Below are positions 1-24,259 of a stretch of DNA of 26,856 nt, piece after piece. The notes beneath the pieces were generated by a model. That model was given only the letters and a program-made list of their open reading frames with translations. It was not told the origin of the DNA and did no database searches. The stretch covers positions 62,001-88,856 of the forward strand of contig QPGO01000262.1 in assembly GCA_008632985.1 (NCBI GenBank), in the 5' to 3' direction. The stretch comes from Psammoneis japonica. Its lineage: Eukaryota. Within the stretch, counting starts at the first letter, position 1; each line of letters begins with the position of its first letter. The position numbers and the translations under genes were made by a program.

Positions 1-190
1 CTCATGAAATGTTCAACAACAGCTGTTTCCACTCACACAGTCAATGTTCCTTCTGCTGCTGTGCAGCCGGACAAGAGTGCAGCCTCATGTGACAAGCAAG
101 CACTCGTGAAATGTTCAACAACAACTGCCTCCATTGATGTGGTCAACATTTTTTCTGCTGTGCAGCCAGGCAAGAGTGCAGCCTCATTTG
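1..190. repeat. ~102-bp tandem repeat, about 2 copies, cut by the window start
   Basis: ctcRtgaaatgttcaacaacaRctg...gtgcagccRgRcaagagtgcagcctcat starts at 1 and again at 103. The period is 34 codons, so it may be a remnant of a repeat-protein gene. Confidence 0.75.
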
Positions 191-974
191 TGCTCATGCC
201 CATGTCTTGAGCAAAGCACACCCCACTTTTCCTTGTCCAAAACTTTGCAGCCATGTGCAAAGTTTCGCTTTTTTTGATGTGTTCCAGCCATGCGCAAACC
301 AAAGCAAGCAGAAAAACAACACTTGCACAATTTTCACATGGCCTCTAACTTGCAAACAAGCTTTCACTGCCAAAATTGCAGATTTGTCCAAATTTCAATG
401 TTTTGCAACACTGACAAGACTCACGTCAGTGCTGCAGTGTGTGGTTGTTTGTGTGCGGCCAATGTTTTTTTCATTGCGACAAATGAGTTGCAACACAACG
501 GATGACTTTTGCCAAAATTTTTGAGAACTCATGTGCTGTTGCTGCTCACAGGCTAACACTGGACATTTTTGTGTGCATTTTGTGGTGGTGGTGTGCTTGC
601 ACAAAAATTTCTGCAAGATGAGCAATGGCGCACAGTTGGCATCATTTCCACAGGATGATTTTGTGACAAATGTTCTCTGTGAAGACTTGAGCACCCATGA
701 AAAAATCGCTCATGTGTTCATTCTCCCATCAAACAGAAAAGCCAGAATGGGCAAGCTTTTTTGTGAACAGCCCAAATGTGCAAACCTCATGTGATTTGTG
801 CTCAAATCAGGTTGTTGTTTTCTTGTGCATCACCTGGGACTGGAGCACGTCTTTTCTCCAAAATTTTTGCTGTCTTCCTTTCATGTGTCCCTTTGCTTGT
901 TGCAAGAACACCCATGCTGCATTTCTTCATTTGCTTTCAACTTGCAGCCTTGATTCTTGCCCATTGCTTGCGTG

Positions 975-1354
975 TGCACCATGCTTGAAGAATGAGCACA
1001 AACAAAAGCAGAGCAAAGCACAAAAAGTGAGAATTGTGAGATTGGATTTTGCTCAATCATTTTGGGATTCTCTGAACAGGCTCTCAATGGCCCAAAGCTT
1101 TTGTGCCAGTCCTGCAGACCAAGAGGCCTTTCAGAGAATGTGCTCGTGACAACAGATTGTCTGGGCACGATTGCCATTGACACACAAGATGTCAACATCG
1201 TCAAGCAATTGCACCTGCAATTTTCGACATCCAATCAACTCTGTTTGATCATTCTGTCCATTGCACAAACCCACGATTGACGTGCGATTGAACACAATGC
1301 AATGTTTGAGTCCACACATGCACACATGAAATGTGTGTGACAGTGCATGCTGCG
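975..1354 (-). repeat. 3' LTR of Gypsy-1
   Basis: tgcaccatgcttgaagaa...catgctgcg, colinear with 5659-6038. Confidence 0.9.
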
Positions 1355-1365
1355 TTCACCTCCCC
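1355..1365 (-). other. Polypurine tract of Gypsy-1
   Basis: Minus strand GGGGAGGTGAA directly abuts the 3' LTR, just after the end of integrase. Confidence 0.75.
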
Positions 1366-1380
1366 AATTGCACATTGGAG

Positions 1381-2376
1381 TCATTTGCCAAACGGCGCAA
1401 TGCAACGGACATTGACAGCATCAATGATGTCACCATGTTTGATCTGTGCTGTGCCACCAGTGTGCGCCGTTGTCATCACACATGGTCCAACATGGGGCTG
1501 CTCTAATTTCTGCAAGTCTTTCTCAAGTGGCATCTTCTCTCCTGCTCTGTGTGCGCTGGATTGGTTTCCAGTCTGTGATGTGTTGGACGTCAAATGTCAT
1601 GTCTCTGTCAAAGACCAACTGTCCTGGTGCAGCTTGCATCACAGCATGATGCATGGATCGCACTGCAAATGCCACTGCTGACAATGTTCCAGCGAAAGGA
1701 TCCTCAGCATCCAGAGGTGCATGTTGCAAATCAAATGCACGGATCACATTTCCCAGCACTTGATGCACCCATTCAACAACTGTGTTTGCTTTTGGATTTT
1801 GTGCAGTTGTTGGGGCTTGACTTTGATGCCATGATCATCTTGCACCACATCTTTAAATTGGTGCCCAATGAACTCACTTCCACGGTCGCATGCAATTGAC
1901 AATGGCCAAGGATGCCTGCTCAGCCATGTCCATTCTAACAGCCCAGCTGCAGTTGTGGATTCCTTGCTTGGAATTTCCACAACTTCAAACCATCCGGTTG
2001 CTGGATCTGTCATTGTCAAGCATTTCAGGACCAGGGGTTTCTTCTTTCCCTTGTGACACATTTTGTGTGGTCCAATGAGATCCACACACAGCCATTCCCA
2101 TGACACTGATTCTGCGCACTTGGGAGGCAAATGCCCACATTTCTTGTGTTTCTTTTTGAATTTCTGGCACATCTCACATCTCGACACACATTTTTGCATG
2201 TCTTCACACAAGGCAGACCACCACAAGTGTTGTGAGATTGTTTCTTCTGTTTGATTTGTGCCAGGGTGAAGAAGGTGCGTGTGATGCCAATCTGTCGCTG
2301 CCTTTTGCAATGTCTTCGGAGCGACGATTTTGTCCTTCCTTGTGACATGTGAGCAACCGGTCTTGCTCACCTCCAC
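1381..2376 (-). pseudogene. pol: Gypsy-1 integrase remnant (zinc finger, rve core, GPY/F-like tail), frameshifted
   Basis: WHHTHLLHPG..CEMCQ..HKKCGHLPPK..LCVDLIGP..MTDPATGWFE..WLSRHPWP..DRGSEF; AVAFAVRS..PGQLVFDRD; PHVGPC..NVRCIAPF. Confidence 0.93.
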
Positions 2377-2505
2377 AAAAAGTCTTCACGTGAAATGTCT
2401 TGTTTGACAATTTGGAGAGAATGTCTCTGTCCCATTTTTGTTCAGTGTCAAGAACTTTGCAATTTAATGGAAAGACATTGTTGCAGTGATTTTGGTGGGA
2501 CCTTT

Positions 2506-2900
2506 TCAGCCAACTCTTCTGTGCTGAGGTTTTCCACAGGTTCCATTTTTTTTCACAGCAAGTCGGCCAATTGCATCTGCGACAATGTTCGCCTTGCCTT
2601 TGAGACACATCATTTTGGGGCTGCACTCTTCTGTTGTTAGACACCAATGCACAACTCTGTCCATTGTGAAATTTTCATGTGTGAGAATTTTGTCATCCAT
2701 GTGTGTGTTCATCTGTTGGCCAAACATCATGTTTTGGAACTCTTTTGATGTCTCCGCTGTGGACAACAGCTCCTTTTTCATTGTGGCACAATGCGTCTGT
2801 GCTCCATTCAGCTCGCGGCTGCAGAAGGCAATTGGTTGGTTGTTCTGCATGATGGCCACTCCCAATTGAGAATTGCTTGCACCAGCACATGTCTCAAAGG
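2506..2900 (-). pseudogene. pol: Gypsy-1 RNase H remnant
   Basis: GVAIMQNNQPIAFCSRELNGAQTHC..KELLS..EECSP..KGKANIVADAI matches the Ty3/Gypsy RNase H pattern. Confidence 0.92.
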
Positions 2901-2929
2901 TGAGTTGAAATTCGGGTGTGATGACAGCA

Positions 2930-3770
2930 TCTCTTCATGTCTTCAAAGGCTTTTTGTTCTGTTTGGTCCATTGCCACTTTGCTTGGGTTGAAGCAAGTTT
3001 GGCTGAAGGAGCCAGAACATGAAATCATTGAGGCCACATGTCTCAACAGCAGTTGATCACACTGGCAAAGCGCCACAATTCCTTGCAAGTTTTGGGAGTT
3101 GCGATCACTTGAATCGCTTCCACCTTTTTTGGAATTGGGCTGATGCCATTGCGGGTGACATGAAAGCCCAGACAGCCCACTTCAGGTTTGGCAAAAAAAA
3201 CTTTTTGGCATTGACCTTCAACCCGGCTTGTTCAAGGTGCAGAAAAACCGTCTCAAGCTTTTTGAGGGGTGGTCTTGAAAATCAACTTTTGCAAGGCACA
3301 GTGTGTCATCAGTGCAAGTCCTGACGAACTCCAGACCTGCCATGAGCTCACTCGTGTGCTCTTGGAAAAACATCTGGAGCTCCACAGATTCCCACAGGGA
3401 GTCTGCAGTGCTCATGTTTGCCCCAAGGCATGACATCGTGCACAAACAACGTGCGCGCGGCGTTGGTTTGATGTGACAGTGTCCCATGCTTAAATCAAGG
3501 GACGTTGCATGCATGAAACCTTCAAGTTTCTGCAGCATGTCCTGAATGTTGGGCAGAGGAAATGGAGCATGTGTTGACCTCTCATTCAGCTCACAAAAGT
3601 TGGGCAAAAACCAAGCTCGCACCAATTTTTCTTTGGTTGAAGGTTGGAGCTGCCCATTCAGAACAATTTGTTTTTCTTGAGACCTTCAGCTTGCATGGTC
3701 TTTCAACCTCCTTTCAAGCAGCCACCTCCAAGGCTTGTGGCATGGGAAATGGTTTGGCATGATGTGGGCC
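2930..3770 (-). pseudogene. pol: Gypsy-1 reverse transcriptase remnant
   Basis: NFCELN..PFPLPNIQDMLQKLEGFMHATSLDLSMGHCHI..FQEHTSELMAGLEFVRTCTDD. The catalytic YxDD reads CTDD at 3305-3316. Confidence 0.93.
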
Positions 3771-4049
3771 AGTGTCCATTTCAACTCTGAATCCACTGGT
3801 TTCCCAGTCCATTTGCCTGGGAACCATCAAAAAGGTTTTCAAATCTTTTTAAGAGGAAGTTTAGCTGCTTTTGCTCTTTTGGTTCTGGATGAGCAGCTGC
3901 TGCTGTCACATCGTCAAGGTCAGCAGCGTGACAGTCTGAGCCAAGGATCCGATTGACCCTGTCATTGAGACCAGTCGCAGCACGAGATTTCTCAATGTGG
4001 TTGGCAATCAACTTAAAAACATCGGCGTCAAAGAGTGCATCAACATTCT

Positions 4050-4514
4050 TCACAGGTGTGGTTGCCTTGCATCCTCCCATTTGATCTCTTCATTCAAGAA
4101 GTTCAGTGTTGTTCCAAGACTTGACATTGAGTCGCATCCCACAATCACATCATGATGACTCAAAGAAGAGTGGGCATCATCAACATGTGCTGTTGCTTCA
4201 ATCATCTTGTGTTTGTCAAATTTGGGTGAGGAGAGCTGGATTTTACATCAACAGTCAGTCGCAAAGAGCCCTCCTTTGGTTTCCCAGATTTTGGTGGCGG
4301 ATGTTTTAGCTCTGAGTTTCCGTGTGAATTTGCACAAAATTGTGGTTGATGATGATGTTCTGCTGTCAAGAACAATGCACAGAGGCTCATTTTTTGCTTT
4401 GCCCAATGAGGTGTTCATGCAAGCAATGACCACTGGACTGGTGTGGGTTGCCTTTTGGCCCTTTTTCCAGGCGTTCCAATGTCCAGCAATGCGCAAGACT
4501 CCTTTGCGGTGCAA
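4050..4514 (-). pseudogene. pol: Gypsy-1 aspartic protease remnant
   Basis: CIVLDSRTSSSTTI (LLDSG-like active site) and WETKGGLF, lying between gag and RT. Confidence 0.75.
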
Positions 4515-4515
4515 G

Positions 4516-5622
4516 TCATTCCTCAGAATTGCTGCGCATCATTCTTTCAAACTGACAATTCTCCTCATCAAGGGTGTCAGAGCCACAATCTTTGCTCTTG
4601 CACTTTTCATCATTGTTCGAAGAACTTGTCTTGAGCATTTTTTGAACTGCCTGGACTGCCATGGCATTCAACTCTTCTTTGCGAGCGGCATTTTCGTTGT
4701 CGCGAGGCGACCACATGCAATTGCCATTTGAACGGCGCCATTTTGGATCACGTTCACAGTGTCCACGGTGTTCTTTTGCTGATTTTTTGATTGACCAGCA
4801 CTTGTCTGTGTTGTGAGTGGACATTTTGAATGAAATGCACCACTTCTTGGACTGAGAATTTTCAGCACCATGTTGGTGACCATTTTTGGCACCACGTTTG
4901 GAGCATTCTTGGCTTTTGATCCAGAACTGCTGCTGGTGTCAGCCTTGGCATGAGTGCTGTCAAATGTGTCCTCTGCAACCTCTGGGCACTCCAGAAACTC
5001 AACCAACTCGTCACAGGTGTGTTTCAAAATTTCGAACCTTGGACGGTTGACTTGAGCTGCCACTTTCGAGGTGCAGGATTGAAGAGGATGTCCTTGAGCT
5101 TGTCCTCCTCAATCTTCTGATCCTTCTCAAAGGGAGGATGGAGCTTGGGGTCTTCTTTGACTTCCTGGACCCAAGCAGCAATTTTGCGTGCTTTAGCCAT
5201 GGTCTCTGGCTTGTTGAGATTGCGATGCAAGCAACATTTCTGAACCTGGAGTGCGTTCTTGGGAAACACATGCAGGCATTTCTCGAGGCTTCCTTTGGCA
5301 GATTTGTCTTCAACATTTGCCACGCCATTCTTGAAAGCATGCAGAGCATCTCCTTGCAACAGCATGTGCATGAGACGGAACTTGTCAGCTTGCTTCTTGA
5401 CGTTCTGGCCCACTGAAAGTTGATCACAGCTCTTGAGGAATTTGATGAACTTGGGAACACCCTGCAACTGGCCTTCTTCTTGGGATGAAAACACTGCTCC
5501 ATCTTGAGGCACTGGCTTGGTTTGAGCGTCTTTGGCTTGGAGTTTGATTCCAATGGCTGAGGAACAATTTTCTCCTGCCTCAATGAAGTCTTGGCATCAG
5601 CAACATGAGGTGAAAGCTTCAT
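4516..5622 (-). pseudogene. gag: Gypsy-1 gag remnant
   Basis: ATG at 5622 just inside the 5' LTR. Fragments LLQGDALHAF, VFPKNALQVQK, LVEFLECPE and a degenerate knuckle (H..THNTDKC). Confidence 0.75.
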
Positions 5623-5658
5623 TTTCAACTTGTCACCTTCTGTGGTGTGTGTGCACAA

Positions 5659-6038
5659 TGCACTGTGCTTGAAGAACAAGCATGAACAAAAGCAGAATGA
5701 AGCACAAAAAGTGAAAATTGTGAGATTGGATTTTGCTCAATCATTTTGGGATTCTCTGAATGGGTTCTCAGTGGCCCAAAGCTTTTGTGCCAGTCCCACA
5801 GACTGAGAGGTTTTTTGGAGAATGTGTTTGTGACAACAGATTGTCTGGGTGTGATTGCCATTGACACATGAGATGTCAACATTGTCAAGCAATTGCATTT
5901 GCAATTTTTGACATCCGATCAACTCTGTGCAATCGTTCTGTCCATCGCACGAACCCACGAATGATGTGCGATTGAACATGACATGACATTCAAGTCCATG
6001 TGTGCGCACATGAAATGCACATGACCACACATGCTGCA
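5659..6038 (-). repeat. 5' LTR of Gypsy-1
   Basis: tgcactgtgcttgaagaa...catgctgca, 380 bp, TG...CA termini. Confidence 0.9.
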
Positions 6039-6689
6039 CATGCTTGCTCAGCTTGTTGTTGTGGACATCTTTGTCAGTGTTGCCCAGCCGGCAATGCAGG
6101 CAGCAGCAGCCTCATGTGCCCTCACTGCAAACATTCTGGGCTCAGCTCTGAGCATGGTCTTTGTTGTCAACTTGCTGCCAGCCACATCACTGCCTCCAAC
6201 TTGACCAAGTCTTTCAGTTGCCTGTGCTGCAGACAACTCTGCGTTGACTTGGGCCCTCTGGTGGAGAGTGCAGCCATCCTGAAGAGCTGATGTGCCATCC
6301 ATGTCTTTGATTTTGGCTGCTTTGCTTTCTTTTGATGCTGTCTCTGTTGCCTTCAATGGGTCCACCTCCAGTCAACCCACAAAATGCCTCATTTTGCTGA
6401 GCTCCTTTTTCTGGCATTGCCCAGCATCCCCAAAGGTGTGCACCCTGCCATGAGAAGGGGAGCGCTTCTGTGCAATGCAGCGGGGCTGTCTCTGATGCCA
6501 TTGATGTCTTTTCCTCTCTGGACAATGACACGCCAAAAACAGCAGCTGACGAAGCAACTTCTGGATCCACTCCTGCCATTGCCCTTCTTCCCCGCACCTC
6601 CACTGCAATGCTTGAAGACAACAACCCAATTGACCAACAAAAGAGTGCCCCCCAATGCCGCCATTCTAAAATGTTCCAATGCACAACAT

Positions 6690-6810
6690 GGCAAAAAGTG
6701 CAAAATCGGGAGGGTGCAGAATGTTCAAGGGTGCAAAAAGAGGAATGATGCAAGATGGCAATGGGGGCCAAATGTTCAAGGGTGCAAAATGGCCAAGGGT
6801 GCAAAAAAAG
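6690..6810 (+). repeat. Short degenerate array of the aagggtgcaaaa satellite motif
   Basis: Several agggtgca units, including caagggtgcaaaatggccaagggtgcaaaa, which is identical to units of the large array. Confidence 0.7.
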
Positions 6811-7394
6811 TGTTCCAGCCACACCACATGAATCAAAACGTGCACACAAATGACGCTCGCGCAATTTTTACATTGGCAAGGACATCCTCCAGTTGCACGC
6901 TTTTTTGGCTCAGTGTTTCCTGTCAACAAGGATTGGTTGCACCCAAAGGAAACTGATGATGAAGCTTTTGCTTGGCCTGGAAAAGACTGTCATGAGAGCA
7001 CTTGGTTGCATTGCTCCATGCTGCTTGAAGACCCCAAAGAAGACGCTGATGCACAGCAGCATTGTTTGACAAGGGCGCTTTGAAATTGCACAGAGAGTTG
7101 ATGAGAAAAAGCAAGGCCGACCCAAATGTCATGATGGACATTCCAACAATGGTGGCCTTTGTCTGTGAGTGGTTGAGCAAGGGAAAGAGCTTGAGTGTTT
7201 CGGTCAGAAGATTTGCCACAATGGAAGAGGAGGGACAAGTTGAATTTGTGGATCACAAAGGGACCCTTGTGGCAGAGGAAAGAATCAAGACCTTGCATTC
7301 AAACACCTTTTGCATGAGGTGCAAGGTTGGAAGGAACGTTCACAGCAGCCTGTCTGAGTTGGTGCCAGACATCGTTCTTGTTGAAAATGGCATT

Positions 7395-7783
7395 GATGCT
7401 TTCCAGGTCTAGGTGGGACCTCGCACTGCTGAACTGTGACATCGACAGTTTTTTGAATCGCGTTGCATGTCGCGCACGCACATTTCTACGTGATTTTGGC
7501 GAAATTTTGCATCATTTTACAGTGCAATTGTCAGGCGATCCATTCAACAACTTTTGATGTTTTTTTCTTCTGCGCCATTCTCGAGTGTCCCAAGAATGGC
7601 GCAGGGCAGGCCATTGTCCAAAACTTCAAGTGTGAACAGAGACATGTGTGCCACAAACTTGGCCGTTCATTTCATGTCGAAGACAAATGTGTCCATTGAC
7701 CAGAGTGCAAAACTGCAGAGCTCGCATGTGGAATTCTGCGGGGCAAATGTCACAAAAAGTCCCACCTGGGACTGGAACCCGTC
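7395..7783 (+). mobile_element. MITE copy A (389 bp), TSD CATT
   Basis: catt|GATGCTTTCCAGG...CTGGAACCCGTC|catt. Confidence 0.9.
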
Positions 7784-8192
7784 CATTTGTGAAAAGGCAC
7801 AAGATGATGGTGTGCAGATGACCATTGCAGTTCTTCAAGGTTGGCTCAACAAAGCCCAGCCTGCGGTTGTGGCTGACCAAACATCTGCAGCTGAGGCAGT
7901 GCCGGCACACGAGCCCCTTTTTCATGGACGACAATTCAGCAAGTGGAGCAAGAATTCAAGCGCGCACCAGTTGGTCAACAGGTGCCTGTCAAAGACTGTC
8001 AACACAACGGACAGCAATGAAGAGGCAACACACAAGTTGAAGGCAGAATTCACTGAATTGAACAAACAGTGTGGCACCGTTGCTTGCGCCATTGCTTGCA
8101 TGCAACTGAACAAAAATGTGACTCCAAAGCAGCTGAAGGATGAAATCCACTGCAGGGGGTGCAACACCGACGACGAACTTGATTGCTCAGAT

Positions 8193-8582
8193 GACACGTT
8201 CCAGCCCCAGGCGGGACTCCGTGTGACATTGGGCCCGCAGAATTCTGCATGCGAGCTCTGCAGTGCAAGAATTTAATTGATGCATGTGTTCATCTTCAAC
8301 ATCAAACAAAAGGCCAAGTTTGTGGTGCAATTGTGCCTCTCACCACTCAACGTTTTTGCAAATGTGCCTGCCCCGTGCAATTCTCAAGACATCACAGAGT
8401 CGCGCTGCAACAAAAAATGTCAAAAGTTGTTGGACGGATCGATCAATTGTTGCACCGTAAAATGACACAAAATGTCACCAAAATCACGTGGAAATCTGCG
8501 TGCGCGACATGCGACACGATTCAAAAAACCATCGATGTCACAGTTCAGTGGTGCGAGGTCCCACCCAGACCTGGAACGCATC
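8193..8582 (-). mobile_element. MITE copy B (390 bp), TSD AGAT
   Basis: agat|GACACGTTCCAGCC...CTGGAACGCATC|agat. Confidence 0.93.
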
Positions 8583-10694
8583 AGATGCCGACCCTTTCAA
8601 AATCAAGTTTCGAACTGCCGTCCAACTGGAGCCAGAGCAACTGTGAGGCAAGGCCATGGGGAAATTTGTGTTTGACGAGGATCAAAGTTGCAGCGACTGC
8701 AACAACTTTGACGAGTCCTGCAAGGACCCAAACTCTGCAGAAGAGCATGCAATGATCAAGGCAACACTCATCTAACAGAGTCATTTCAACCACTCCTGAT
8801 GTGAATGCCCAGAGCACAACAAAGGTGGGTTCGACAGAGGCCAGGACATTGATCAGTCTCAAAAAATTGGAGATTTGAGCAGACTGTTGAATCTCAGCCA
8901 TCAGCTGTGCAGCAGCAGGAAAATCGTGAGGTCGACGGTGTTGAGACGAATGGAGTGGAAGGAACTGCTGGTTGGTCAGGCAAGTGGAGCAAAATGGAAC
9001 CAGCGATGGTCCCAAAATGACACACAGTCTGCACCTCACACATCGATTCTGAACATGATGCAGAAAATGACGAGTCGGTTGAATTGAGCAAGACATCATT
9101 TCTGAACATTTCCAAGATGATGAGTGCAAAGACTCAGAAGGAGCCGAGATTCAGGAAGATGTGACAAAAGATCACAGTCAAGGCAAAACGGCTGCAAAAG
9201 AGCCAGAAGCATCAGAAAGCGGTGACAGCAATGCAGCACAAGATGCAGCCAGCGACAAGCTGGAAAAGAAGACATTGCATCTGTGAAACAAATGGGCCTT
9301 GGTGATGGCCAGCAGGCAGAACAAAGCAAGTCTGAAGAGGGGCAGAAGAGATCGTCAGGTGAAGCAATTCAATCAGGTGAGCAAGGCAAAATGGAGCCAG
9401 CCATGGTCCCAAATGGTGCTGTCTTCGTTTCTCACGTCAAACATTTCAAACGCTGTGCAGACAATTGAGAGTCGGTCAAAATGGACCCAGAAATGGACCC
9501 AAATGGCTCACCCCATGCTGGGCAGGACATTTCTGAAAATGTGCAAGATGATGACTCCTTTCCAGCCCAAGAAGACGGTGGTGAGATGCAGGGATTGCAA
9601 GGCAGCATTGAGGATGCAGCCCCTGATTCGGTCAGAGACAAGCCAAGTCAACGACCCAGCGCATCTCTGAAAACACACAAAACCTCAGAGGGTGACCTGT
9701 CTGATGCAGATTCGAAGTGAAGCTGAAGAGGAAAGCCAGGAGGAAGAGGGAAGTGAAGCAGAAGAGGAAAGCCAGGAGGAATTGGAGCAGGAGGATGGGG
9801 AGATGTCAGGCAACAATGATGATGAGAAACGTGGCGACGGCAACAAGAGAGCAAACAAGCAACATCGGCAGGGAGATTGTCAGAAAAAATTTCCCACAAG
9901 AACACTCGTGACGACAACAACAAAGCCAACAAGTAAAGTTGGCTGGAAATGGTGCAAAAGAAATTGCGCAATCATGACAGAGGCACGGAAGGAGTTCCAA
10001 GTGCAGTCAAGCAGGACGAAGTGTCTGAAACAGCAAGCATTGTCAGTGACGGATCTGCTGCGCCAGAGCTCCCTGTTGTCGCCAATCAAAAGGCAGCATT
10101 GCTGCCATGAAGCAAAGGGATCCAGCAATGGCAACCATCGAAACATTTGCCACAGAAAAAGAGCGGGCAAGTGGTCGTCTGTTTTTGGAAAAGACGAGAC
10201 AGGAAGCCAAAGCCAACAGGAGAAAGCAGATTCGGAAAGAAAAGAAAGAGGCAGAGGGCCCCTCTGCTCCACCGAAGTCAAAAAAAATGAGGAGGGTTGT
10301 TGTGAACATGCCCCGCTCCTCTGCAAGAAATCAGAGCAAGAGAAAGAAGGGCTGGAACATCATTTGTGCAAACACAATCACTGCAGATGTTGACATTTGT
10401 GTGTGTGCATCCAGCGCTTCAATTGCTTGTCAAAATGACATTGCAGCTGTTGACAGCAAACCAATGTGTGATCCCAAAACACATCTTTGGCAATGCCAGT
10501 TGTTGGTTGAAATGGGCCCAGCGTTGGTCCCAAATGGCGCAGCCTGCCCATCACCCATCAACCGAAATGGGTCCAGCAAAGGTCCCAAATGGGAGGTCTG
10601 TGCATTGCACGTCGCCATTTTGTGGTCAAAAACATTGATGGATGATGTGTGGACTCTTGCCCCAACCCAAAACCAAACCAAAAAGACGCGTGCA

Positions 10695-10758
10695 CCAACC
10701 CTGACCCCTGGCCCCTGACCCCAACCCTGCCCCCAACCCCAACCCTGCCCCTGCCCCC
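10695..10758 (+). repeat. Degenerate telomere-like (CCCTAA-type) hexamer tract; continues at 15895-15908
   Basis: Units ccctga, ccctgg, ccccaa and ccctgc. Hexamer phase resumes (ccccaa ccccag) on the far side of Gypsy-2. Confidence 0.65.
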
Positions 10759-11113
10759 TGCACTGTGCTTGAAGAATGAGCACAAACGAAAGCAGAACAA
10801 AGTGCGAAAAGTGGAAACATGAGATTAAATTGTGCTCTGTGCTTTTTGGTTTCTCCGAATGAGTTCTCAAAATGGCCCAAAGCTTCTGCACTGCTTCCAC
10901 AGACAAAAGGCCTTTCGGAGAATGCATCTGTGACAACAGATTGTCCAAGTGCGATTGCCATTGACGCGCAAGATGTCAGCATCGTCAATCGATCGCATTT
11001 GCAATTTTCGACTCCCAATCAGCTCTGTGTGATTGTTCTGTCCTTTGTGCACATCCACGACTGTGGCACGATTGACACACAAATGATGTGTGATTGTGGA
11101 CATGCACACTGCA
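10759..11113 (-). repeat. 3' LTR of Gypsy-2
   Basis: tgcactgtgcttgaagaatgag...cacactgca, colinear with 15529-15894 except for a short indel near the end. Confidence 0.88.
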
Positions 11114-11123
11114 CTCGCCTCCC
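11114..11123 (-). other. Polypurine tract of Gypsy-2
   Basis: Minus strand GGGAGGCGAG abuts the LTR, and the adjacent attgcacattggagtcatt is shared with Gypsy-1. Confidence 0.7.
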
Positions 11124-11139
11124 TGATTGCACATTGGAG

Positions 11140-13969
11140 TCATTCATCAAGTGGAGTCATTTGACGGACATTGACAGCGTCAACAATGTCTCCACATTGG
11201 CTGCATTGTGACAATTGGCAATGGCTGTTGTTGTTTTGCACAGGCCAACACAGGGCCGCTTCAATTTCCAAATGTCTTTCAAGAGTGTCGTGGTTTGTTT
11301 CACACTCCATGTGTGTGTGCGACACTCCACGCACATGCATGTGCAAATGTGCTGCAGCATTGTGTCGAGCATTCTCTCTGACATTGTTTTGTTCATGTGG
11401 GCACAAGGACCAACTGTCCTGCTGTTCTTTCATGGCATTGATTGTGCATGGCATTTTGCCCAGTGCTTGATGTGTGCTCTCAATTGGCGTTCACTCACTT
11501 GCTTGTGGATTTGGTGCAGTTTGGTGGGCTTGCTTCACATGCCACATTGCTCTGCTGCACTGCCACATTTCTCAAGCAGCAATTGACGATGGTCAAGGAC
11601 ACAACCATTTTGTCTTGACAATCAATCCTGCGATGGTTGTGAACTCCATCATGGATTTTTTGCACTTCAACCATCCATCAGTTGGATTTTAATTGTCACT
11701 TGGATGTTTCTTTTTGACATGCCAGCATCATTTTGTCATTCTGAAGGCACTGCTTTCATGCACCAAGTGGACAAATGTCCATTTTTCTTTTCTTTTTCTG
11801 AATCTTTGGAACATCTCGTGTGTCGACATGACAAGTCATTTGTGTCTTGCCTCGCACATTGTGCAACACAACCGCGCGGGTGTTGTGAGATTGTCTTTTG
11901 CCAGTGTGAAGTGGACACTGTGTGATCGCACACCAATCTGTCACAGAGGTTTTTTCCAACCGTCCTTTGTGCAAAGGCAATTTTGTCCTTGTGACATGAG
12001 CATTTTTTGATCTTGCTTGCCTCCACGAAAAGTGCTCCCATGACATGTCGCGTCTGACAATTTGGAGGGAATGTCTTCATCCCGTTTCAACGGCGGGACA
12101 TTGTCGCAGGATTCAATTTTCTGCAGTGAGTTGGCTGATCGCGTCTGTCGCAGCGACGTTTGCCTTGCCCTCGATGCACATCATTTCGGGGCTAAAGTTT
12201 TCTGTTGTAAGTTGCCAATGCGCGGCTTTGTCCGTTGTGTCTCATGATCCGTGTGTGTGTCAATCTGTTGGCCAAACAGCGTGTTTTGGGATTTTGTGAG
12301 TGTTTTCACTGTGGACAGAAGTTCTTTTTTCCGTTGCAATGCATGACATTGAAATTCGTGCATGACAACAACACAGTTTTTGATTTGACATGCTCCACAT
12401 TTTCGGAGACTTTTTGTTCCGCACTTGTGCTTTTGCCGTTTGACCTTTGTTGAGGTGGATTTGGCTGGCACTGCACAGGAGATCATTGAGGCTGCATGTC
12501 TTGACAGCAGCAATGTTCAACGATGAGATGTCGCAGTGTTCTTTGCGTTTTTCTCAGTGTTGCAATTGCCTGAGTCACCTCCATTTTCATTGCAATCGAT
12601 TGCACATCGTTGCACATGAAAGTCTTGACAGTTTGTTTCAATTTGAGCAGCGAAGGACTTTTGTCATTGACCTTCAAAGCAAATGCTCCAGTCGCATGAT
12701 GCCGTCTCAAGCTTTTCTTGTGCAGGTGACATTTTGAAGTCACTTTTTGTCAGACATGAATGATCACATGTGGTCATTCTGACAACTTCAAACCTGTCAT
12801 GAGTTCACTCATGTGTTGCACAAAAATGTCTGGGGCTCCACAGCTTCTCGCTGGAAGTCCACAGCACTCATTTTCTCCCCACGGCATGATTTTCATGTTG
12901 GCATGACATGTGCTTTTTTAATTTGATGTGACAGTGTCCCACATTCAAATCGAGTGAGGTCACACACATGAAACCTTGCAGTTTCTGAAGTGTGACCTGA
13001 ATGTTTGGTGGAGGACACAACGTGCATGCTGGCCTCTTGTTCAGTTCACAAAAGTTGGGCAGAAACTGAGCTTCGACCATTTTTCTGTTTTTTTAAAGGT
13101 TGGAGCTGTCCATTCAGAGCAGCTCATTTTTCTTTGGGACTTTTAGCTCACAGAGCCTTTCAATCTCTTTGTGAGTTGCCTCCAAGGCTTGTGGAAACAG
13201 GAAACCTTTCGCACGATGTGGTTTCAAGCCAGACTTCGCTGTGAGGTTTTCTGGCCCACTCGCCTGGAGAACCATCAAAAAGAGATTTAAATCTTTTCAA
13301 AGGGAAGATCAATGGCTTCTGCTCTTCTGGAGTCAGACAAGTTGCCGCAGCTGTCACATCATTGAGATTGGAAGTGCGATGATGTGATTCGAGGACCATT
13401 GGCTCCATCATCAACTCCATTCACGGTGTCACATTTTTTGGTGTGATCGGCACTTGGCTGAAAACATTGGCTTCGAAGAGTGGATCAACATTCTTCATGG
13501 ATGCAGTTGCTTCTTCCTCTTTGATTTCTTCAGCTGCATGGTCCAATGTGATTTCAAGACTGGACATCAAGTCGCGTCTCATGATCATGTCATTTGGACT
13601 TGAAGAAGAATGTTTTTTTGTCAACACACGCTGTTTGAATGTCAGCATGTCTTAAATTCACACAGCAAGAGCTGAGCTCGGTGTTTGCCATCAGTCGTGA
13701 AGAGCTCACCCTTGGTTTCCCAAGTTTTTGGTGGCAGATTTCTTCATTCTCACTTCTGCGTGAATTTGTGCAAAATTGTGGACGATGATGTTCTTTGACA
13801 AAAAGAATGGCGTTGAAGCTTGTTTTTTGCTTTCCTCAGAGAAGCGCTCACATGAACAGCAAGAGTGGGACTGGCGCAACACACTGTGATGCTTTTTCTG
13901 GATTGCCAGATGTCCTGCAACGCGTTGTGCTCCTCGAGTGGTGTAAATTTTTGATTGGAGTCAATCAGA
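11140..13969 (-). pseudogene. pol: Gypsy-2 pol remnant (PR, RT, RNase H, IN), heavily frameshifted
   Basis: FLPNFCELNKR..PNIQVTLQKLQGFMCVTSLDLNVGHCHIKL (RT); KELLSTVKTL..LFGQQI (RNase H); GDIVDAVNVRQMTP (integrase tail); DMIMRRDLMSSLEITLD (protease). Confidence 0.85.
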
Positions 13970-14358
13970 GACGCGTTCCAGGTCCAGGTGGGACCTCGCA
14001 CTGCTGAGCTGCGACATCAACAGTTTTTTGAATCTCATCGCATGTCGTGCACGTGGATTTCTACGTGATTTTTTTGATGTTTTGTGTCATTTTACAGCAC
14101 ACTTGTTGAGCAATCTGTCCAAAAACTTTTGACATTTTTTGTCACAGCGCAACTCTAAAATGTCTTGAGAACTGCGTGGGGCAGGCACACTTGCAAAAAC
14201 GTTGAGTGGTGAGAGGCACAATTGTGCCACAAACTTGGCCATTCATTTGATGTTGAAGACAAATGCATCCATTGATTAAATTCTCATGCTGCGGAGCTTG
14301 CATGCAGAATTCTGCAGGCCCAATGTCACACGGAGTCCGCCCAGGGCTGGAACGCATC
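13970..14358 (+). mobile_element. MITE copy C (389 bp) nested in Gypsy-2, TSD CAGA
   Basis: caga|GACGCGTTCCAGG...CTGGAACGCATC|caga. Confidence 0.93.
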
Positions 14359-14362
14359 CAGA

Positions 14363-15491
14363 TCATTTTTTCCAAATTGACAGTTTCGCTCGCTGAGTGT
14401 TTTAGAGCCACAATTTTTGCTCTCATTTCCACGTTCCTTTGCCAAGGAAATCATTTTAACTGTTTTTGTGAACTGCCCAGTCACTGTGGCATGCAACTCC
14501 TCTTTCACAGAGACATTTTTCTGCTGTCATCACGTCGCGTGCAATTGCTGTTAGAGAGTCATGTTTTTGGGTTTCTCTCAGAGCAACCCTTGCACTCTTT
14601 TGCTGCTTCATTTTCAGAACAGCTTCAACCCATGATGCAGGTGTTCTTTTTTCAAAGATTGGACCTCTGGCTCACTTTGGATTGTTCAGGTGCCATGTGG
14701 GAGACCATTTTTAGAACCAAACTTGGAGCCATTTTGGTTTTGAAATTGGCTTTGCTGTCAGCGCCTGATTTGACATGTTTTTTCATCATGGACATCTTCA
14801 ATGACCTTCAGATGACTCAAAACTTAATCAGCACATCAAGGATGAGTTCCAATGGTTGGTTGTTTTGGACAGCAGACTGATGCTGCCACCCTTGTGGTGC
14901 GAGTGACAGCTGATGTCTCAGCACTCGGTTTCCCACTGAGCTCGACTTAGAATCGATTGAAGGGTCGCGTGGATGCTCTTCATTGACCTCTTGGGTCCAA
15001 TGGGCACTCTCTTGCTGCTGAGAGCCTTTGGTTTCTTCAGATCATCTCAAAAACAATGGCTCTGATTCTGAAGTTTAACTTCTCGGAAGACATGAGTCAA
15101 GAGACTCTTGAGGCACTTTTCAGCGGTTTCTTCTTGGTCTTCAGACTCAAGGCTTGTTGACTTGGTCTCTAAAAACTCTCCAACAGTCTCTCCTTGCACA
15201 GCAGATGCATTTCTTTGACCTGGTTGACTCGCGACCTGAAATTCATCGAGTCATGACTTGGTGCAGACATTTCGACAATGCTGTGCACTTGCAGAGTCCT
15301 TGGTCCTGAGGTGCTTGAAATGGATCACATTGGAATGAATCCTCTTGTCTCACAGACAAAAAACAGGGTCCCATCTTGAGGTGCTGCTCAGATTGAGCTG
15401 CCTCCACTCGGAAATCAATTCCAGCAGAACCAGCACATTTCACACCTGCTCATGGAAGAGTTTGCAAAGGCACATCAGCCAAAACTTTCAT
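14363..15491 (-). pseudogene. gag: Gypsy-2 gag remnant
   Basis: ATG at 15491 (MKVLADV) in the same position as the Gypsy-1 gag start. KEELHA..SKNCGSKTLSERNCQF parallels Gypsy-1 KEELNA..SKDCGSDTLDEENCQF. Confidence 0.65.
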
Positions 15492-15528
15492 TTTCCGTGT
15501 TTTTGCCTTTTGTGGTGTGTGCACACAA

Positions 15529-15894
15529 TGCACTGTGCTCAAAGAATGAGCACAAACGAAAGTGGAACAAAGTGCAAAAAGTGAAAATGTGAGATCAAAT
15601 TTTGCTCTGTGCTTTTTGGTTTCTCCAAATGAGCTCTCAATGGCCCAAAGCTTCTGCACTCCTTCTGCAGACAAAAGGCCTTTTGGAGAACATGTCCATT
15701 GCAACAGATTGTCTGAGTGCGATTGCTGTTGACACGCAAGATGTCAAAATCGTCAATCGACTGCGTTTGCAATTTTCGACTTCCGATCAACTCTGTGTGA
15801 TCATTCTGTCCTTTGCGCGCATCCACGACTGTGGAGTGATTGGCGCACAAACAACACATGATTGCAGACATGCACACAACAGTCGCGCGCTGCA
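15529..15894 (-). repeat. 5' LTR of Gypsy-2
   Basis: tgcactgtgctcaaagaatgag...gctgca followed by cccc. Confidence 0.88.
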
Positions 15895-15997
15895 CCCCAA
15901 CCCCAGCCGAGCACATTTTGTGACAACTGCAGCATGGTGAAGAATGTCAGCATTCCAGAATCTGTGCTGCATGAGAAGCACAGCGCGGTCAATTGTT

Positions 15998-16318
15998 GAT
16001 GCGCTCCAGCCCCAGGCGGGACTCCGTGTGACATTGGGCCCGCAGAATTCTGCATGCGAGCTCCGCAGTGCAAGAATTTAATTGATGGACACATTTGTCT
16101 TCAACATCAAATGAATGGCCAAGTTTGTGTTGCAATTGTGCCTCTTGACACTCCACGTTTTTGCAAGTGCGCCTGCCCTGCACGATTCTTAAGACATTGT
16201 AGAATTGCGCTGTGACAAAAAATGTCAAAAGTTGTTGGACGGATCGCTCAATGAGTGCACCACAAAATGACACAAATGTCAAAAAAATCACGCAGAAATC
16301 TACGTGCGCGACATGTGA
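15998..16318 (-). mobile_element. MITE copy D, truncated (one terminus only)
   Basis: Starts GATGCGCTCCAGCCCCAGG, colinear with copy B until ~16318, and lacks the last ~70 bp. Confidence 0.88.
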
Positions 16319-16416: not shown

Positions 16417-16806
16417 GATGCATTCCAGGTCTGGGTGGGACCTCGCACTGCTGAACTGTGACATCGACAGTTTTTTGAATCACGTCGCATGTCGTGCACG
16501 TGGATTTTCACATGATTTTTTTGACATTTTGTGTCATTTTATGGTGCACTTGTTGAGCGATCCGTCCAACAACTTTTGACATTTTTTGTCACAGCGCGAT
16601 TCTTTGATGTCTTAAGAATCACGCAGGGCAGGTGCATTTGCAAAAACGTCGAGAGGCAAGAGGCACAATTGCGCCACAAACTTGGCCGTTCATTTGATGT
16701 TGAAGACAAACACATCCATCAATTAAATTCTTGCACTGCAGAGCTCGCACGCAGAATTCTGCGGGCCCAATGTCACACGGAGTCCCGCCTGGGGCTGGAG
16801 CGCATC
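16417..16806 (+). mobile_element. MITE copy E (390 bp), TSD TCGC
   Basis: tcgc|GATGCATTCCAGG...CTGGAGCGCATC|tcgc. Confidence 0.93.
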
Positions 16807-17752
16807 TCGCCAAGGTTCAGGGCCTGTGAACCTCCCAAGCCAGATGAGCTGGCTGCAAAGTTGGGTTTGTGTTTCACCTCTCTGTGAGAGGATGTTTCGA
16901 GTGTGTGAGCCAAGGGTGCAAAACAAAGGGTGCAAAATGGAAAAGGGCACAAAATCACAAAGGGTGCAAAATCACAAAGGGCGCAAAATGGCCAAGGGCG
17001 CAAAATCACAAAGGGCTCAAAGGGCGCAAAGGGTGCAAAATCACAAAGGGCGCAAAATGGACAAGGGCGCAAAATCACAAAGGGCACAAAATGGCCAAGG
17101 GCACAAAATCACAAAGGGTGCAAGACAGCCAAGGGCTCAAAATCACAAAGGGCACAAAATGGAGGCAAAGGGTGCAAAGTCACAAAGGGCACAAAATGGC
17201 CAAGGGCGCAAAATCACAAAGGGCTCAAAATCACAAAGGGTGCAAAGGGCGCAAAACCACAAAGGGTGCAAAATCACAAAGGGCGCAAAATCACAAAGGG
17301 CACAAAATGGCGGCAAAGGGCACAAAATCACAAAGGGCGCAAAATGACCAAGGGAGCAAGACAGCCAAGGGCTCAAAATTGCAAAGGGCGCAAAATGGTG
17401 GCAAAGGGTGCAAAACCACAAAGGGCGCAAAATGGCCAAGGGTGCAAAATCACAAAGGGCTCAAAATCACAAAGGGTGCAAAATCACAAAGGGCGCAAAA
17501 TGGACAAGGGTGCAAAATCACCAAGGGTGCAAGACAGCCAAGGGCTCAAAATCACAAAGGGTGCAAAATGGCGGCAAAGGGTGCAAAAACAAAAAGGGCG
17601 CAAAACAGCCAGGGCACAAAATCACAAAGGGTGCAAAATCAGAAAGGGCGCAAAATGGCCGAGGGCGCCAAATCACAAATGGCGCTAAATCACAAAGGGC
17701 ACAAAATGGCGTCAAAGGGTGCAAAATCACAAAGGGCACAAAATGGCCAAGG

Positions 17753-18542
17753 GATGTGCTCCAGCCCCAGGCGGGACTCCATGTGACATTTGGCCCGTGG
17801 AACTCCACGTGTGAGCTCCGCAGTGCAAGAACTCAATTGATGGATGTGCTCATCTTCAAGATCAAATGAGCGGCCAAATTTGTGGTGCAATTGTGCCTCG
17901 CGCCACTCAACTTTTTTGCAAATGTGCCTGCCCTGCGCGATTCTTGAGACATCACAGAATCGCGCTGCAACAAAGATGGGTTCCAGTCCCAGGTGGGACT
18001 TTTTGTGACATTGGGCCCGCAGAATTCTGCGTGCGAGCTCCACAGCAAAATTGTCAAGCAATGCATGTGTGAATGATCGCCAACAGAAAAAGAGGCAATT
18101 TTGCGAACACATCTCCTCCTCCACACTTGAAGTGCATTCTTTGCAGCATGCCCGGGCATGTTCTCCAGACATTGAAGAACACACCCAGCACATTTTTGTT
18201 GACATGAGCACAGACAACAGCAAGCCTTTGGCTTCGCAAAACAGGCAGTGTGGAACAATTTTTTGTGACAGAACACGCAGAAATGTGCGCGCGAAACATG
18301 CGACGGATGACAAAAAACAATTGTGCCACAGCTCAGCAGTGCAAGGTCCCAAATGGAGCTGGAACACGTCCAAAAAATGTCAAAAGTTGTCACGCGGATC
18401 GCTCAACAAGTGCGCCATGAGATGACACAAAATGTCACAAAAATCACGCAGAAATCTGCGTGCGCGACATGCGACGCAATTCAAAAAACTGTCAATGTCG
18501 CAGCTCATCAGCACGAGGTCCCACCCAGACCTGGAACGCACC
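17753..18542 (-). mobile_element. MITE copy F, TSD AAGG, split by a nested related MITE
   Basis: aagg|GATGTGCTCCAGCC...CTGGAACGCACC|aagg. Removal restores the satellite unit atggccaagggcgcaaaa. Confidence 0.9.
17975..18370 (-). mobile_element. Second MITE subfamily (396 bp) nested in copy F, TSD CAAA
   Basis: caaa|GATGGGTTCCAGTCCC...GCTGGAACACGTC|caaa. The ends are related to the main family but the interior differs. Confidence 0.88.
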
Positions 18543-19008
18543 AAGGGCGCAAAATCACAAAGGATGCAAAATGGTGGCAAAGGGTGCAAAATCACAAGTG
18601 GTGCAAAATGGCCAAGGGCGCAAAATCACAAAGGGCTCAAAATCACTTTTGCGCCCTTTGCCGCCATTTTCCGCCCTTTGTGATTTTGTGCCCTTGGCCA
18701 TTTTGCACCCTTTGTGATTTTGCGCACTTTGCCACCATTTTGCGCCCTTTGTGATTTTGTGCCCTTTGCCGCCATTTTGCACCCTTTGTGGTTTTGCACC
18801 CTTGGCCATTTTGTGCCCTTTGTGATTTTGAGCCCTTTGCCGCCATTTTCCGCCCTTTGTGATTTTGCACCCTTGGCCATTTTGCACCCTTTGTGATTTT
18901 GCACCCTTTGCCGCCATTTTGCGCCCTTTGTGATTTTGCACCCTTGGCCATTTTGCACCCTTTGTGCTTTTGCACCCTTTGCCGCCATTTTGCACCCTTT
19001 GTGATTTT

Positions 19009-19396
19009 GACGTGTTCCAGGTCTGGGTGGGACCTCGCACTGCTGAACTGTGACATCGACAGTTTTTTGAATCATGTCGCATGTCGCGCACATGGATTTC
19101 TGCGTGATTTTTCGATGTTTTGTGTCATTTTACGGTGCACTTGTTGAGCGATCCGTCCAACAACTTTTGACATTTTTTGTTGCAGCGCGATTCTACAATG
19201 TCTTAAGAATCGCGTGGGCAGGCGCATTTGCAAAAACGTCGAGTGGCAAGAGGCACAATTGTGCCACAAACTTGGCCGTTTGTTTGATGTTGAAGACAAA
19301 TGTGTCCATCAATTAAATTCTCGCACTGCGGAGCTCGCACGTAGAATTCTGCGGGCCCAATGTCACACGGAGTCCCACCCAGGGCTGGAACGCGTC
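19009..19396 (+). mobile_element. MITE copy G (388 bp), TSD TTTT
   Basis: tttt|GACGTGTTCCAGG...CTGGAACGCGTC|tttt. Confidence 0.92.
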
Positions 19397-22132: not shown

Positions 22133-22522
22133 GACGTGTTCCAGGTCTGGGTGGGACCTCGCACTGCTGAACTGTGACATCGACAGTTTTTTGAATCATG
22201 TCGCATGTCGCGCACATGGATTTCTGCGTGATTTTTTCGATGTTTTGTGTCATTTTACGGTGCACTTGTTGAGCGATCCGTCCAACAACTTTTGACATTT
22301 TTTGTTGCAGCGCGATTCTACAATGTCTTGAGAATCGCGTGGGGCAGGCGCATTTGCAAAAACGTCGAGTGGCAAGAGGCACAATTGTGCCACAAACTTG
22401 GCCGTTTGTTTGATGTTGAAGACAAATGTGTCCATCAATTAAATTCTCGCACTGCGGAGCTCGCACGTAGAATTCTGCGGGCCCAATGTCACACGGAGTC
22501 CCACCCAGGGCTGGAACGCGTC
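22133..22522 (+). mobile_element. MITE copy H (390 bp), TSD TTTT; duplicate of G
   Basis: Same flanks and nearly the same sequence as G, offset ~3125 bp. Confidence 0.9.
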
Positions 22523-23777: not shown

Positions 23778-24259
23778 NNNNNNNNNNNNNNNNNNNNNNN
23801 NNNNNNNNNNNNNNNNNNNNNNNNNNNNNNNNNNNNNNNNNNNNNNNNNNNNNNNNNNNNNNNNNNNNNNNNNNNNNNNNNNNNNNNNNNNNNNNNNNNN
23901 NNNNNNNNNNNNNNNNNNNNNNNNNNNNNNNNNNNNNNNNNNNNNNNNNNNNNNNNNNNNNNNNNNNNNNNNNNNNNNNNNNNNNNNNNNNNNNNNNNNN
24001 NNNNNNNNNNNNNNNNNNNNNNNNNNNNNNNNNNNNNNNNNNNNNNNNNNNNNNNNNNNNNNNNNNNNNNNNNNNNNNNNNNNNNNNNNNNNNNNNNNNN
24101 NNNNNNNNNNNNNNNNNNNNNNNNNNNNNNNNNNNNNNNNNNNNNNNNNNNNNNNNNNNNNNNNNNNNNNNNNNNNNNNNNNNNNNNNNNNNNNNNNNNN
24201 NNNNNNNNNNNNNNNNNNNNNNNNNNNNNNNNNNNNNNNNNNNNNNNNNNNNNNNNNNN
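23778..24259. other. Assembly gap (482 N)
   Basis: Run of n characters. Confidence 1.

Follow-up and report, generated by a model that had tools for sequence, protein, structure and literature searches.

How can the pol gene of a retrotransposon lose every one of its conserved tyrosines, most of them to histidine or cysteine, when most of its other conserved residues are still in place? The question is raised by positions 1381 to 3770 of a 26,856-nucleotide stretch of DNA from Psammoneis japonica (assembly GCA_008632985.1, contig QPGO01000262.1, positions 62,001 to 88,856 of the forward strand), which we call the window throughout. A first-pass annotation, made from the letters alone, had read this region as the pol of a Gypsy-type element whose conserved tyrosines had been replaced through A to G changes on both strands, and had proposed that the responsible process acts on DNA. 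We find that the region is best explained as the pol of a dead Ty3/Gypsy-like element inside a tract of repeats, 26.8 kb long or more, where almost all TpA have been turned into CpA or TpG, in situ and after insertion; we put the probability of this reading at roughly 0.8. The process itself, a hypermutation of TpA at the level of DNA, is very probable, and deamination of adenine is a tentative proposal for its chemistry, to which we give slightly worse than even odds. The element that contains the region, which we call element A, and its parts are as follows:

975 to 6017, minus strand: element A, a degenerate Ty3/Gypsy-like retrotransposon with long terminal repeats (LTRs), recognised from its LTR pair and from a pol that is collinear with intact relatives; it contains 1381 to 3770.
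975 to 1333, minus strand: 3' LTR of element A (in the element's own orientation), 84% identical to the other LTR.
5659 to 6017, minus strand: 5' LTR of element A, from the same 84% identical pair.
1390 to 4331, minus strand: pol remnant (reverse transcriptase (RT), RNase H and integrase) in which no conserved Tyr is left; found by tblastn with pol protein P0004, with stops and frame shifts.
3305 to 3487, minus strand: RT core motifs, GYYH now GHCH (3470 to 3487) and YxDD now CTDD (3305 to 3328), from alignment to PF00078-bearing relatives.
2506 to 2934, minus strand: RNase H domain (IAFCSR, EEC), Pfam RT_RNaseH at 46.8 bits (cut-off 24.8).
1744 to 2385, minus strand: integrase, zinc-binding H2C2 domain and catalytic core (KKCGHLP, MTDPATGW, LSRHPWP), from Pfam.

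Residues 3 to 1009 of P0004, an intact relative from a public metagenome, align collinearly to window positions 4331 to 1390 (tblastn, E = 1e-147), and along this alignment pol is interrupted by 16 distinct in-frame stops (15 TGA and 1 TAA) and by several changes of frame. Its domains follow the order RT, RNase H, integrase, and the relatives carry PF00078, PF17917/PF17919, PF17921 and PF00665, from which we assign element A to the Ty3/Gypsy type. The profile check that the first-pass annotation had proposed succeeds in part: RT_RNaseH and Integrase_H2C2 (45.5 bits, cut-off 25.5) lie above their cut-offs, rve stays under its own (28.4 against 32.6 bits), and RVT_1 has no match at E <= 0.1 for the open reading frame (ORF) at 3221 to 3685; the RT domain is split by frame shifts and mutated. 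With the lost tyrosines, the 16 stops and the several frame shifts, inactivation of the element is as plausible as that annotation had supposed. The short signals expected at the ends of such an element (target-site duplication, primer-binding site, polypurine tract) are blurred by the conversion of TA.

The evidence that carries our reading begins with the tyrosines. All nine motifs that had been quoted from this region are present in the minus-strand translation, with the codons that had been given for them:

3305 to 3328, minus strand: FVRTCTDD, Cys encoded by TGC.
3470 to 3487, minus strand: MGHCHI, with CAC and TGT.
2815 to 2832, minus strand: IAFCSR, with TGC.
2623 to 2631, minus strand: EEC, with TGC.
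2281 to 2292, minus strand: DWHH, with CAT.
2125 to 2145, minus strand: KKCGHLP, with TGT.
1903 to 1923, minus strand: LSRHPWP, with CAT.
1480 to 1497, minus strand: PHVGPC, with CAT and TGT.
1990 to 2013, minus strand: MTDPATGW, with ACA.

The intact versions of these motifs had been given as typical of Gypsy elements, and they match the 12 intact pol relatives in our alignment, a reference set of proteins from public metagenomes that are about 1000 to 1100 residues long and 45 to 57% identical to the integrase ORF. Thirteen columns that hold Tyr in all 12 relatives map onto element A, and Tyr is kept at none of them (0/13), whereas 180 of the 275 columns that are invariant for another residue still hold it (14/14 for Trp and 24/27 for Pro, for example). 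If we accept every column with Tyr in at least 10 of the 12 relatives, the number rises to 25, with no Tyr, 12 His (CAY), 7 Cys (TGY) and 6 that are other or unalignable. The automatic mapping of these 25 columns gave 11 His, 6 Cys and 8 other before manual inspection, and the columns of YxDD and STYHTT, both situated at frame shifts, were read by eye as the Cys of CTDD and as a His in SMHH. Tyr is thus lost faster than other residues, and to His and Cys, as had been claimed (Fisher's exact test, p = 1.8e-6 for the invariant columns and p = 2.3e-10 at the threshold of 10 of 12). Among the replacements of residues other than Tyr, 28 of 170 are explicable by conversion of TA and 23 of 170 by decay of CpG, raw counts that include some misaligned columns and on which we place no weight.

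It is easy to see how such a pattern could mislead if functional members of the family themselves carried Cys or His at these positions, a possibility that the first-pass annotation had raised against itself. They do not: across 63 related metagenome loci, Tyr stands in 646 of the 651 cells at the invariant Tyr columns, and three of the four cells with His or Cys sit in one locus, L029, which is itself poor in TA. Searches with the integrase, at longer and at near lengths, returned no relative of more than 57% identity; six of the 20 near-length matches were examined, and all six retain tyrosines, including the Tyr of W-Y-H where that region is present.

Because the relatives carry Tyr, the ancestral codon was TAY and its products are TGY and CAY, which fixes the direction of change as TA to TG or CA, the direction first proposed. 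For the same reason decay of CpG is unable to give these products, the ancestral codon being TAY and not CGY. That both strands are hit also holds up: 12 His stand against 7 Cys, without a clear strand bias, and across positions 1 to 16000 we count 1683 CA against 1755 TG. The damaged base itself could be either of the two, because TA is its own reverse complement, and a change of A to G on either strand is a change of T to C on either strand.

How far does the loss of TpA reach? It extends over the entire window:

1 to 26856, no strand: domain depleted in TpA and enriched in CpA and TpG, with no boundary inside the window; all 2-kb blocks have TA at or below 0.08 of expectation.

In the 26.4 kb counted there are 64 TA dinucleotides, 0.04 of expectation, and the corresponding ratios are 1.77 for CA, 1.69 for TG and 0.50 for CG. 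Block by block (2 kb, whole window) the ratio lies between 0.00 and 0.08 for TA, 1.55 and 2.32 for CA, and 1.28 and 2.17 for TG. Elements, spacers and satellite are alike in this respect, with TA at 0.03 to 0.06 of expectation in element A, in a second element (element B, below), in the spacers and in the satellite. The frequency of TA is 0.0024 in the window and 0.063 in 62 related loci (L029 left out), and the median observed/expected ratio of the related loci is 0.75 (n=63). GC content moves in the direction that such a conversion demands, from a median of 0.409 in the relatives (63 loci) to 0.463 in element A, a gain of about the amount expected from converting the lost TA.

Simple arithmetic on the dinucleotide counts shows that the excess of CA and TG (about 2330) roughly matches the deficit of TA (about 1670) plus that of CG (about 730). 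Decay of CpG acts in the window as well, with CpG at 0.5 of expectation and conserved Arg turned into Cys, His, Gln, Trp or stop, and it accounts for part of the excess of CA and TG, roughly a third, and for some of the LTR differences described below. The Arg changes can be seen in elements A and B, where conserved Arg codons (window 3046 to 3054, 2788 to 2796 and other columns) now read Cys, His, Gln, Trp or TGA. From this decay, and from CpG at 0.26 to 0.66 of expectation in the parts measured, the tract is probably also cytosine-methylated.

The loss of TA has a consequence for the reading of such DNA. In six frames the window holds 1201 TGA, 78 TAA and 29 TAG, and because nearly only TGA stops remain it contains many long chance ORFs, 120 of at least 80 amino acids, including one of 1274 amino acids within the satellite. 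These long ORFs are no evidence of genes, and gene callers would over-predict in any TA-free DNA where TGA is almost the only stop, since it yields long spurious frames. No host gene is recognisable: when 50 of the 95 listed stop-to-stop ORFs of at least 90 amino acids (those not wholly inside 18400 to 26300, the RT fragment included) were compared with Pfam, no match rose above a curated cut-off. The window is assembled as a scaffold, in which two gaps of N span 223 and 259 bases.

Now we consider when the change took place. An element inserts with two identical LTRs, so any differences between them record what happened to the DNA afterwards, and the window offers two such pairs, the second in a further, more decayed element:

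10759 to 15886, minus strand: element B, second and more decayed, with related LTRs and pol (LTR and pol matches) and a transposon inserted in it.
10759 to about 11118 and 15529 to about 15886, minus strand: LTR pair of element B.
11789 to 13651, minus strand: pol pieces of element B, from tblastn.

Of the 359 positions compared in element A, 57 now differ between the two LTRs, and 36 of these lie in 18 doublets where one copy reads CA and the other TG; the remainder are single transitions (19, of which 10 at CpG) and transversions (2). In element B the LTR pair shows 14 such doublets. When the same substitutions are placed at random (5000 runs), the mean number of doublets is 2.0 for element A and 1.5 for element B, with a maximum of 7. 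A doublet of this kind could arise from an ancestral TA or from an ancestral CG, and here one pair informs on the other: the LTRs of element B read CG at only 1 of the 14 comparable doublet sites of pair A, but at 5 of the 9 sites where a single CpG change separates the two LTRs of pair A, so that most doublets of pair A are TA-derived. The pol pieces of element B repeat the loss of tyrosine, with 0 of 10 kept at invariant columns and 1 of 17 at the threshold of 10 of 12.

The same change is found in DNA of other classes, a miniature inverted-repeat transposable element (MITE) and a satellite:

16417 to 16806, plus strand: MITE of 390 bp, full copy, with terminal inverted repeats and a 4-bp target duplication, TCGC.
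7395 to 7783 (plus), 8193 to 8582 (minus), 13970 to 14358 (plus), 19009 to 19396 (plus) and 22133 to 22522 (plus): other full copies of the MITE.
15998 to 16318, 17753 to 17974 and 18371 to 18540, all minus strand: partial copies of the MITE.
19397 to 23777, no strand: satellite with a 17-bp unit, TA-free.
16912 to 17753 (opposite orientation), 18647 to 19009 and 24260 to 26140: further arrays of the 17-bp satellite.

The MITE has imperfect terminal inverted repeats, one copy sits in element B, and 4-bp target duplications flank all five independent full copies (TCGC, TTTT, ATCT, CAGA and CATT); from the inverted repeats and the target duplications we take it to move without an RNA intermediate. 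Comparison of seven to eight copies gives 59 variable sites of the pyrimidine-purine type, of which 7 show TA, CA and TG, 18 show CA and TG only, and 34 involve CG. No site shows both TA and CG (0/59), and we therefore distinguish sites that decay from CG and sites that decay from TA as two classes. In the satellite region the counts of TA are 0 (20001 to 22000), 5 (22001 to 24000) and 0 (24001 to 26000). Taken together, the LTR doublets, a MITE without an RNA stage, and TA-free satellite and spacer support the DNA-level process that the first-pass annotation had put forward.

We also compared the window with contigs of a sequencing run, X1. They contain other copies of these families, whose differences are for the most part transitions (1194, with 221 transversions). 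Judged by these contigs, almost the whole window is repetitive to some extent, and as a result triggering by repeats and targeting of a region are inseparable here. The segment 9054 to 10046 was considered as a single-copy stretch and dropped, its summed depth being about 5 times that of the best contig. Summed contig depth, which is not copy number, suggests tens of copies of the retroelement and many more of the MITE; for the MITE it reaches 24,000 to 79,000, against about 50 for unique parts, and this figure, again not a copy number, suggests that the family is very abundant.

The satellite has features of its own. It occurs in both orientations, with higher-order periods of 71 to 159 bp and strong AT and GC skew, and the N gaps lie among its arrays. 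Segments 19216 to 19515 and 22342 to 22641, spaced 3126 bp apart, align with 100% identity, and the longer segments 19015 to 19397 and 22139 to 22521 are not identical. The block that recurs at this spacing may be a real duplication or an effect of the assembly.

Quantitative inspection of the TA that remain reveals that they are not a random sample. Sorted by canonical NTAN context, the 64 residual TA comprise 23 TTAA, 19 CTAA, 12 GTAA, 8 CTAC, 1 CTAG and 1 ATAA, and none stands in ATAT, ATAC, ATAG or GTAC. For comparison with the relatives we use 59 of them, leaving out the second copy of the near-identical duplicated block (19015 to 19397 and 22139 to 22521). An A at -2 or a T at +1 is found at 1 of these 59, against 47.8% of the TA in 62 intact relatives (p = 1.5e-15), and TTAA makes up 22 of the 59, against 8% of TA in the relatives. 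Several residual TA occupy one and the same position in more than one MITE copy, which fits a resistance of the site itself.

One locus among the relatives is itself partly converted. L029:1-1518, a metagenome contig whose ORF is open over the match to pol, has TA at 0.19 and CpG at 0.04 of expectation. It keeps 4 of 11 conserved tyrosines, the 7 lost having become 2 Cys, 2 His and 3 other residues, and it keeps 179 of 187 other conserved residues. Of its residual TA, 3 of 23 stand in ATAN contexts, the same flank pattern as in the window. It looks like an early, partly converted stage of the TpA conversion, in an independent public record. The intact relatives of this Gypsy lineage (L001 to L063) turn up frequently in a variety of public metagenomes, in many cases on contigs of about 4 to 6 kb, not much longer than the element itself; the CpG ratio ranges among them from 0 to 1.18, and their hosts accordingly differ in methylation.

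A process of this kind is known from one preprint. Its authors counted 302 new point mutations in the nuclear genome of mutation-accumulation lines of the marine alga Bigelowiella natans (Mettrop et al., 2026, bioRxiv 10.64898/2026.01.13.699255). Of these, 231 landed in two viral insertions, one of a giant virus (186 kb) and one of a virophage (25 kb); A to G or T to C changes made up 230 of the 231, every one of the 230 at TpA, and the rate came to about 6e-7 per site per generation. The same source describes 324 TpA-depleted coding sequences in that genome, with a mean TpA frequency of 0.0018 and an enrichment in reverse transcriptase and DDE domains, as well as 124 clusters of TpA-depleted 1-kb windows. 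The giant-virus insert is single-copy, with a Rho for TpA of 0.45, and neither it nor the virophage insert is saturated. An ADAT2-like deaminase is the candidate enzyme that its authors propose. Our own literature searches for hypermutation of repeats from TA to CA or TG found only this preprint; a further search on LTR retrotransposons in B. natans gave, among the matches listed, none on this topic by title or abstract.

The window fits the description given for B. natans and passes the thresholds of the preprint, with the difference that our block statistics use 2 kb and treat CA and TG separately, and those of the preprint use 1-kb windows and a combined ratio. The changes are on TpA and give TpG or CpA (TAY to CAY or TGY in 19 of 25 columns, and the 7 MITE sites with TA, CA and TG), and they act on resident DNA and not through an RNA copy (the LTR doublets, and the MITE, satellite and spacer that are affected). 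Borrowed rates give a rough sense of time. With 211 mutations over 3132 generations and 6169 TpA, the B. natans rate would be about 1.1e-5 per TpA per generation, at which about 3e5 generations might be needed to bring TA down to 4%. Outside the TA and CpG classes, about 3% of the sites differ between the LTRs of element A, which at the background rate of B. natans would correspond to tens of millions of generations. Since this age far exceeds 3e5 generations, saturation is what we would expect if the same process acts here.

How might such an outcome be produced? In the mechanism that we favour, a host enzyme would deaminate adenine to hypoxanthine at TpA in silenced or foreign DNA, the hypoxanthine would pair with C, and replication would fix G. 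The candidate is an ADAT2/TadA-like deaminase, taken from the preprint (bioRxiv 10.64898/2026.01.13.699255). Its flank preference would be such that ATA and TAT are converted first and completely, and TTAA and, more generally, YTAA/TTAR persist longest. Whatever the chemistry, the conversion of TpA has in codons turned TAY into CAY or TGY and ATA into ACA or ATG, made TAA and TAG stops disappear, and cost pol its catalytic and structural tyrosines, with ordinary CpG decay running alongside and adding to the excess of CA and TG.

The explanations that compete with this one differ in which base, which molecule or which step they hold responsible. Closest to it is the view that the process is the same and acts on DNA, with the thymine of TpA as the base attacked: 5-hydroxymethyl- or 5-formyl-uracil, mispaired with G or misrepaired, would give T to C. 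Oxidised thymines can mispair with G, and with TA palindromic every datum reported here fits T to C equally. We nevertheless find this variant unlikely, as there is no sign of such a modification in the window and an ADAT2-like enzyme is the candidate that the preprint names. A very different view would place the change on RNA, with an ADAR-like enzyme editing the retrotransposon transcript in a U-A context before reverse transcription. ADAR enzymes do favour a U before the edited A (discussion of bioRxiv 10.64898/2026.01.13.699255), and such editing should leave changes on one strand, identical LTRs and an effect on retroelements only. We find instead His and Cys both well represented (12 and 7), LTRs that were copied from one RNA and differ at 18 doublets in one element and 14 in the other, and the same change in MITE, satellite and spacers. 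RNA editing before reverse transcription is ruled out on these grounds for all practical purposes.

Hypermutation of TpA in DNA must also be set against causes that need no special process at all. The usual decay that methylated CpG undergoes, or selection that disfavours TA, might be thought sufficient given a CpG ratio of 0.26 to 0.66 in parts and 0.50 overall, the decay of Arg codons, and the 34 of 59 MITE sites that involve CG; yet decay of CpG cannot remove TA or make TGY and CAY from TAY, and selection is hard to reconcile with the relatives' median TA of 0.75, with a dead pol that is under no coding or RNA-stability selection, and with satellites that are equally affected. As the sole cause this has next to no chance of being right: CpG decay in that role is contradicted, and it is a co-acting process. 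The remaining concern is technical, namely that a modification at TpA is misread by polymerases and that the assembler picks CA or TG at random, in a scaffold that has two N gaps and of which we see contigs and not raw reads. Strand-wise misreading would give runs that are all TG or all CA, whereas in the window CA and TG alternate within a few bases; contigs of run X1 (word depth about 50 to 56) reproduce parts of the window with 0 to 5 differences; the residual TA obey the flank rule; and in B. natans the new TpA mutations appear in only 11 of 15 lines that were sequenced alike (bioRxiv 10.64898/2026.01.13.699255). We therefore regard an artefact of sequencing or assembly as very improbable.

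Several points weigh against the reading that we prefer, the in situ conversion of TpA by a host process, or limit how far it can be taken. The enzyme and the attacked base are candidates only, since sequence can show neither. The targeting to foreign DNA rests on a missing counter-example, the window containing no recognisable host gene. The flank effect rests on 59 to 64 sites, several of which are homologous in repeat copies and thus not fully independent. By a rough estimate from the CpG sites of pair A, its data allow about a third of the doublets to be CpG-derived. Run X1 may be the source sample of the window, in which case its contigs are not independent support. Among the Tyr columns common to elements A and B in which CAY or TGY now stands in both, the two elements match at 6 and disagree at 2; independent 50:50 outcomes would give about 4 and about 4, and the columns are too few to decide. 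Likewise, many of the variable MITE sites are split 5:1 or 6:1. Some conversions may predate the copying of the elements, or the flanks may bias which strand is hit.

What does the window add? The kind of process is known from the one 2026 preprint, and new here are its saturation on retrotransposon, MITE and satellite DNA and the flank effect; the window shows what TpA hypermutation leaves at completion, and on which classes of DNA. It also supplies three tests that can be made in any genome with nothing but its letters: conserved Tyr turned into His or Cys, doublets of CA against TG when the two LTRs of an element are compared, and TA, CA and TG at one and the same MITE site. The flank preference is a constraint that any candidate enzyme must reproduce, and if adenine deamination is the true chemistry, that enzyme would be a natural DNA adenine deaminase specific for TpA. 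More speculatively, and with the odds in our view leaning against it, we suggest that the window could be the end state of a defence like repeat-induced point mutation (RIP) that runs in the opposite direction: a process, probably adenine-deaminating, that erases TpA over silenced tracts whatever the class of element, follows a wider rule (ATA and TAT fastest, TTAA slowest), and operates also outside the one strain studied, as L029 suggests. False ORFs of the kind described above could then explain part of the unannotated, TpA-depleted 'genes' of B. natans.

We close by setting the window beside the systems that it resembles. Element A shares with Ty3/Gypsy elements (Metaviridae-type) the LTR pair, the pol order RT, RNase H, integrase, and the H2C2 zinc domain of the integrase; it differs in being a dead copy, without a conserved Tyr and without an open gag-pol, interrupted by 16 in-frame stops and several frame shifts. 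Decay of CpG by deamination of 5-methylcytosine gives the same products, TpG and CpA, and the same doublet pattern between copies, and it acts in the window too, but its substrate is CpG and not TpA, and it is incomplete here (0.5) whereas the loss of TA is near-total. APOBEC3, acting on retroviral cDNA, and ADAR, acting on the RNA of repeats, likewise leave clustered transitions of deaminase type on foreign or repeated nucleic acid; these enzymes work on single-stranded cDNA or RNA, on one strand, and before or during integration, whereas the window was changed on both strands, after insertion, and in elements that have no RNA stage.

The closest likeness is to the hypermutation of B. natans, where again only TpA is hit and becomes TpG or CpA according to strand, and where depletion of TpA is coupled to a gain of CpA and TpG in clusters of windows; the frequency of TpA is 0.0018 in the depleted coding sequences of that genome and 0.0024 in our window. 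The difference lies in the targets, which there are viral inserts that are not saturated, and here are LTR retrotransposons, a MITE and a satellite that are (0.04). The main text of the preprint does not contain the words 'retrotransposon', 'LTR', 'satellite', 'flanking' or 'trinucleotide' (bioRxiv 10.64898/2026.01.13.699255).

RIP of fungi, finally, is the system that the window mirrors. RIP is a change of C to T; it targets CpA, raises TpA and AT content, and is triggered by duplication in the sexual phase. Like the process in the window, it works on DNA and on both strands, depends on a dinucleotide, drives transitions to saturation, and kills transposons in place. The polarity is reversed: in the window TpA is nearly absent, GC has gone up, and the change runs from TA to CA and TG, so that TpA is destroyed where RIP would create it. 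Dependence on repeats is open to doubt for the process in the window, and a strict need for homology is argued against by the main target in B. natans, which, as the preprint describes it, is single-copy.

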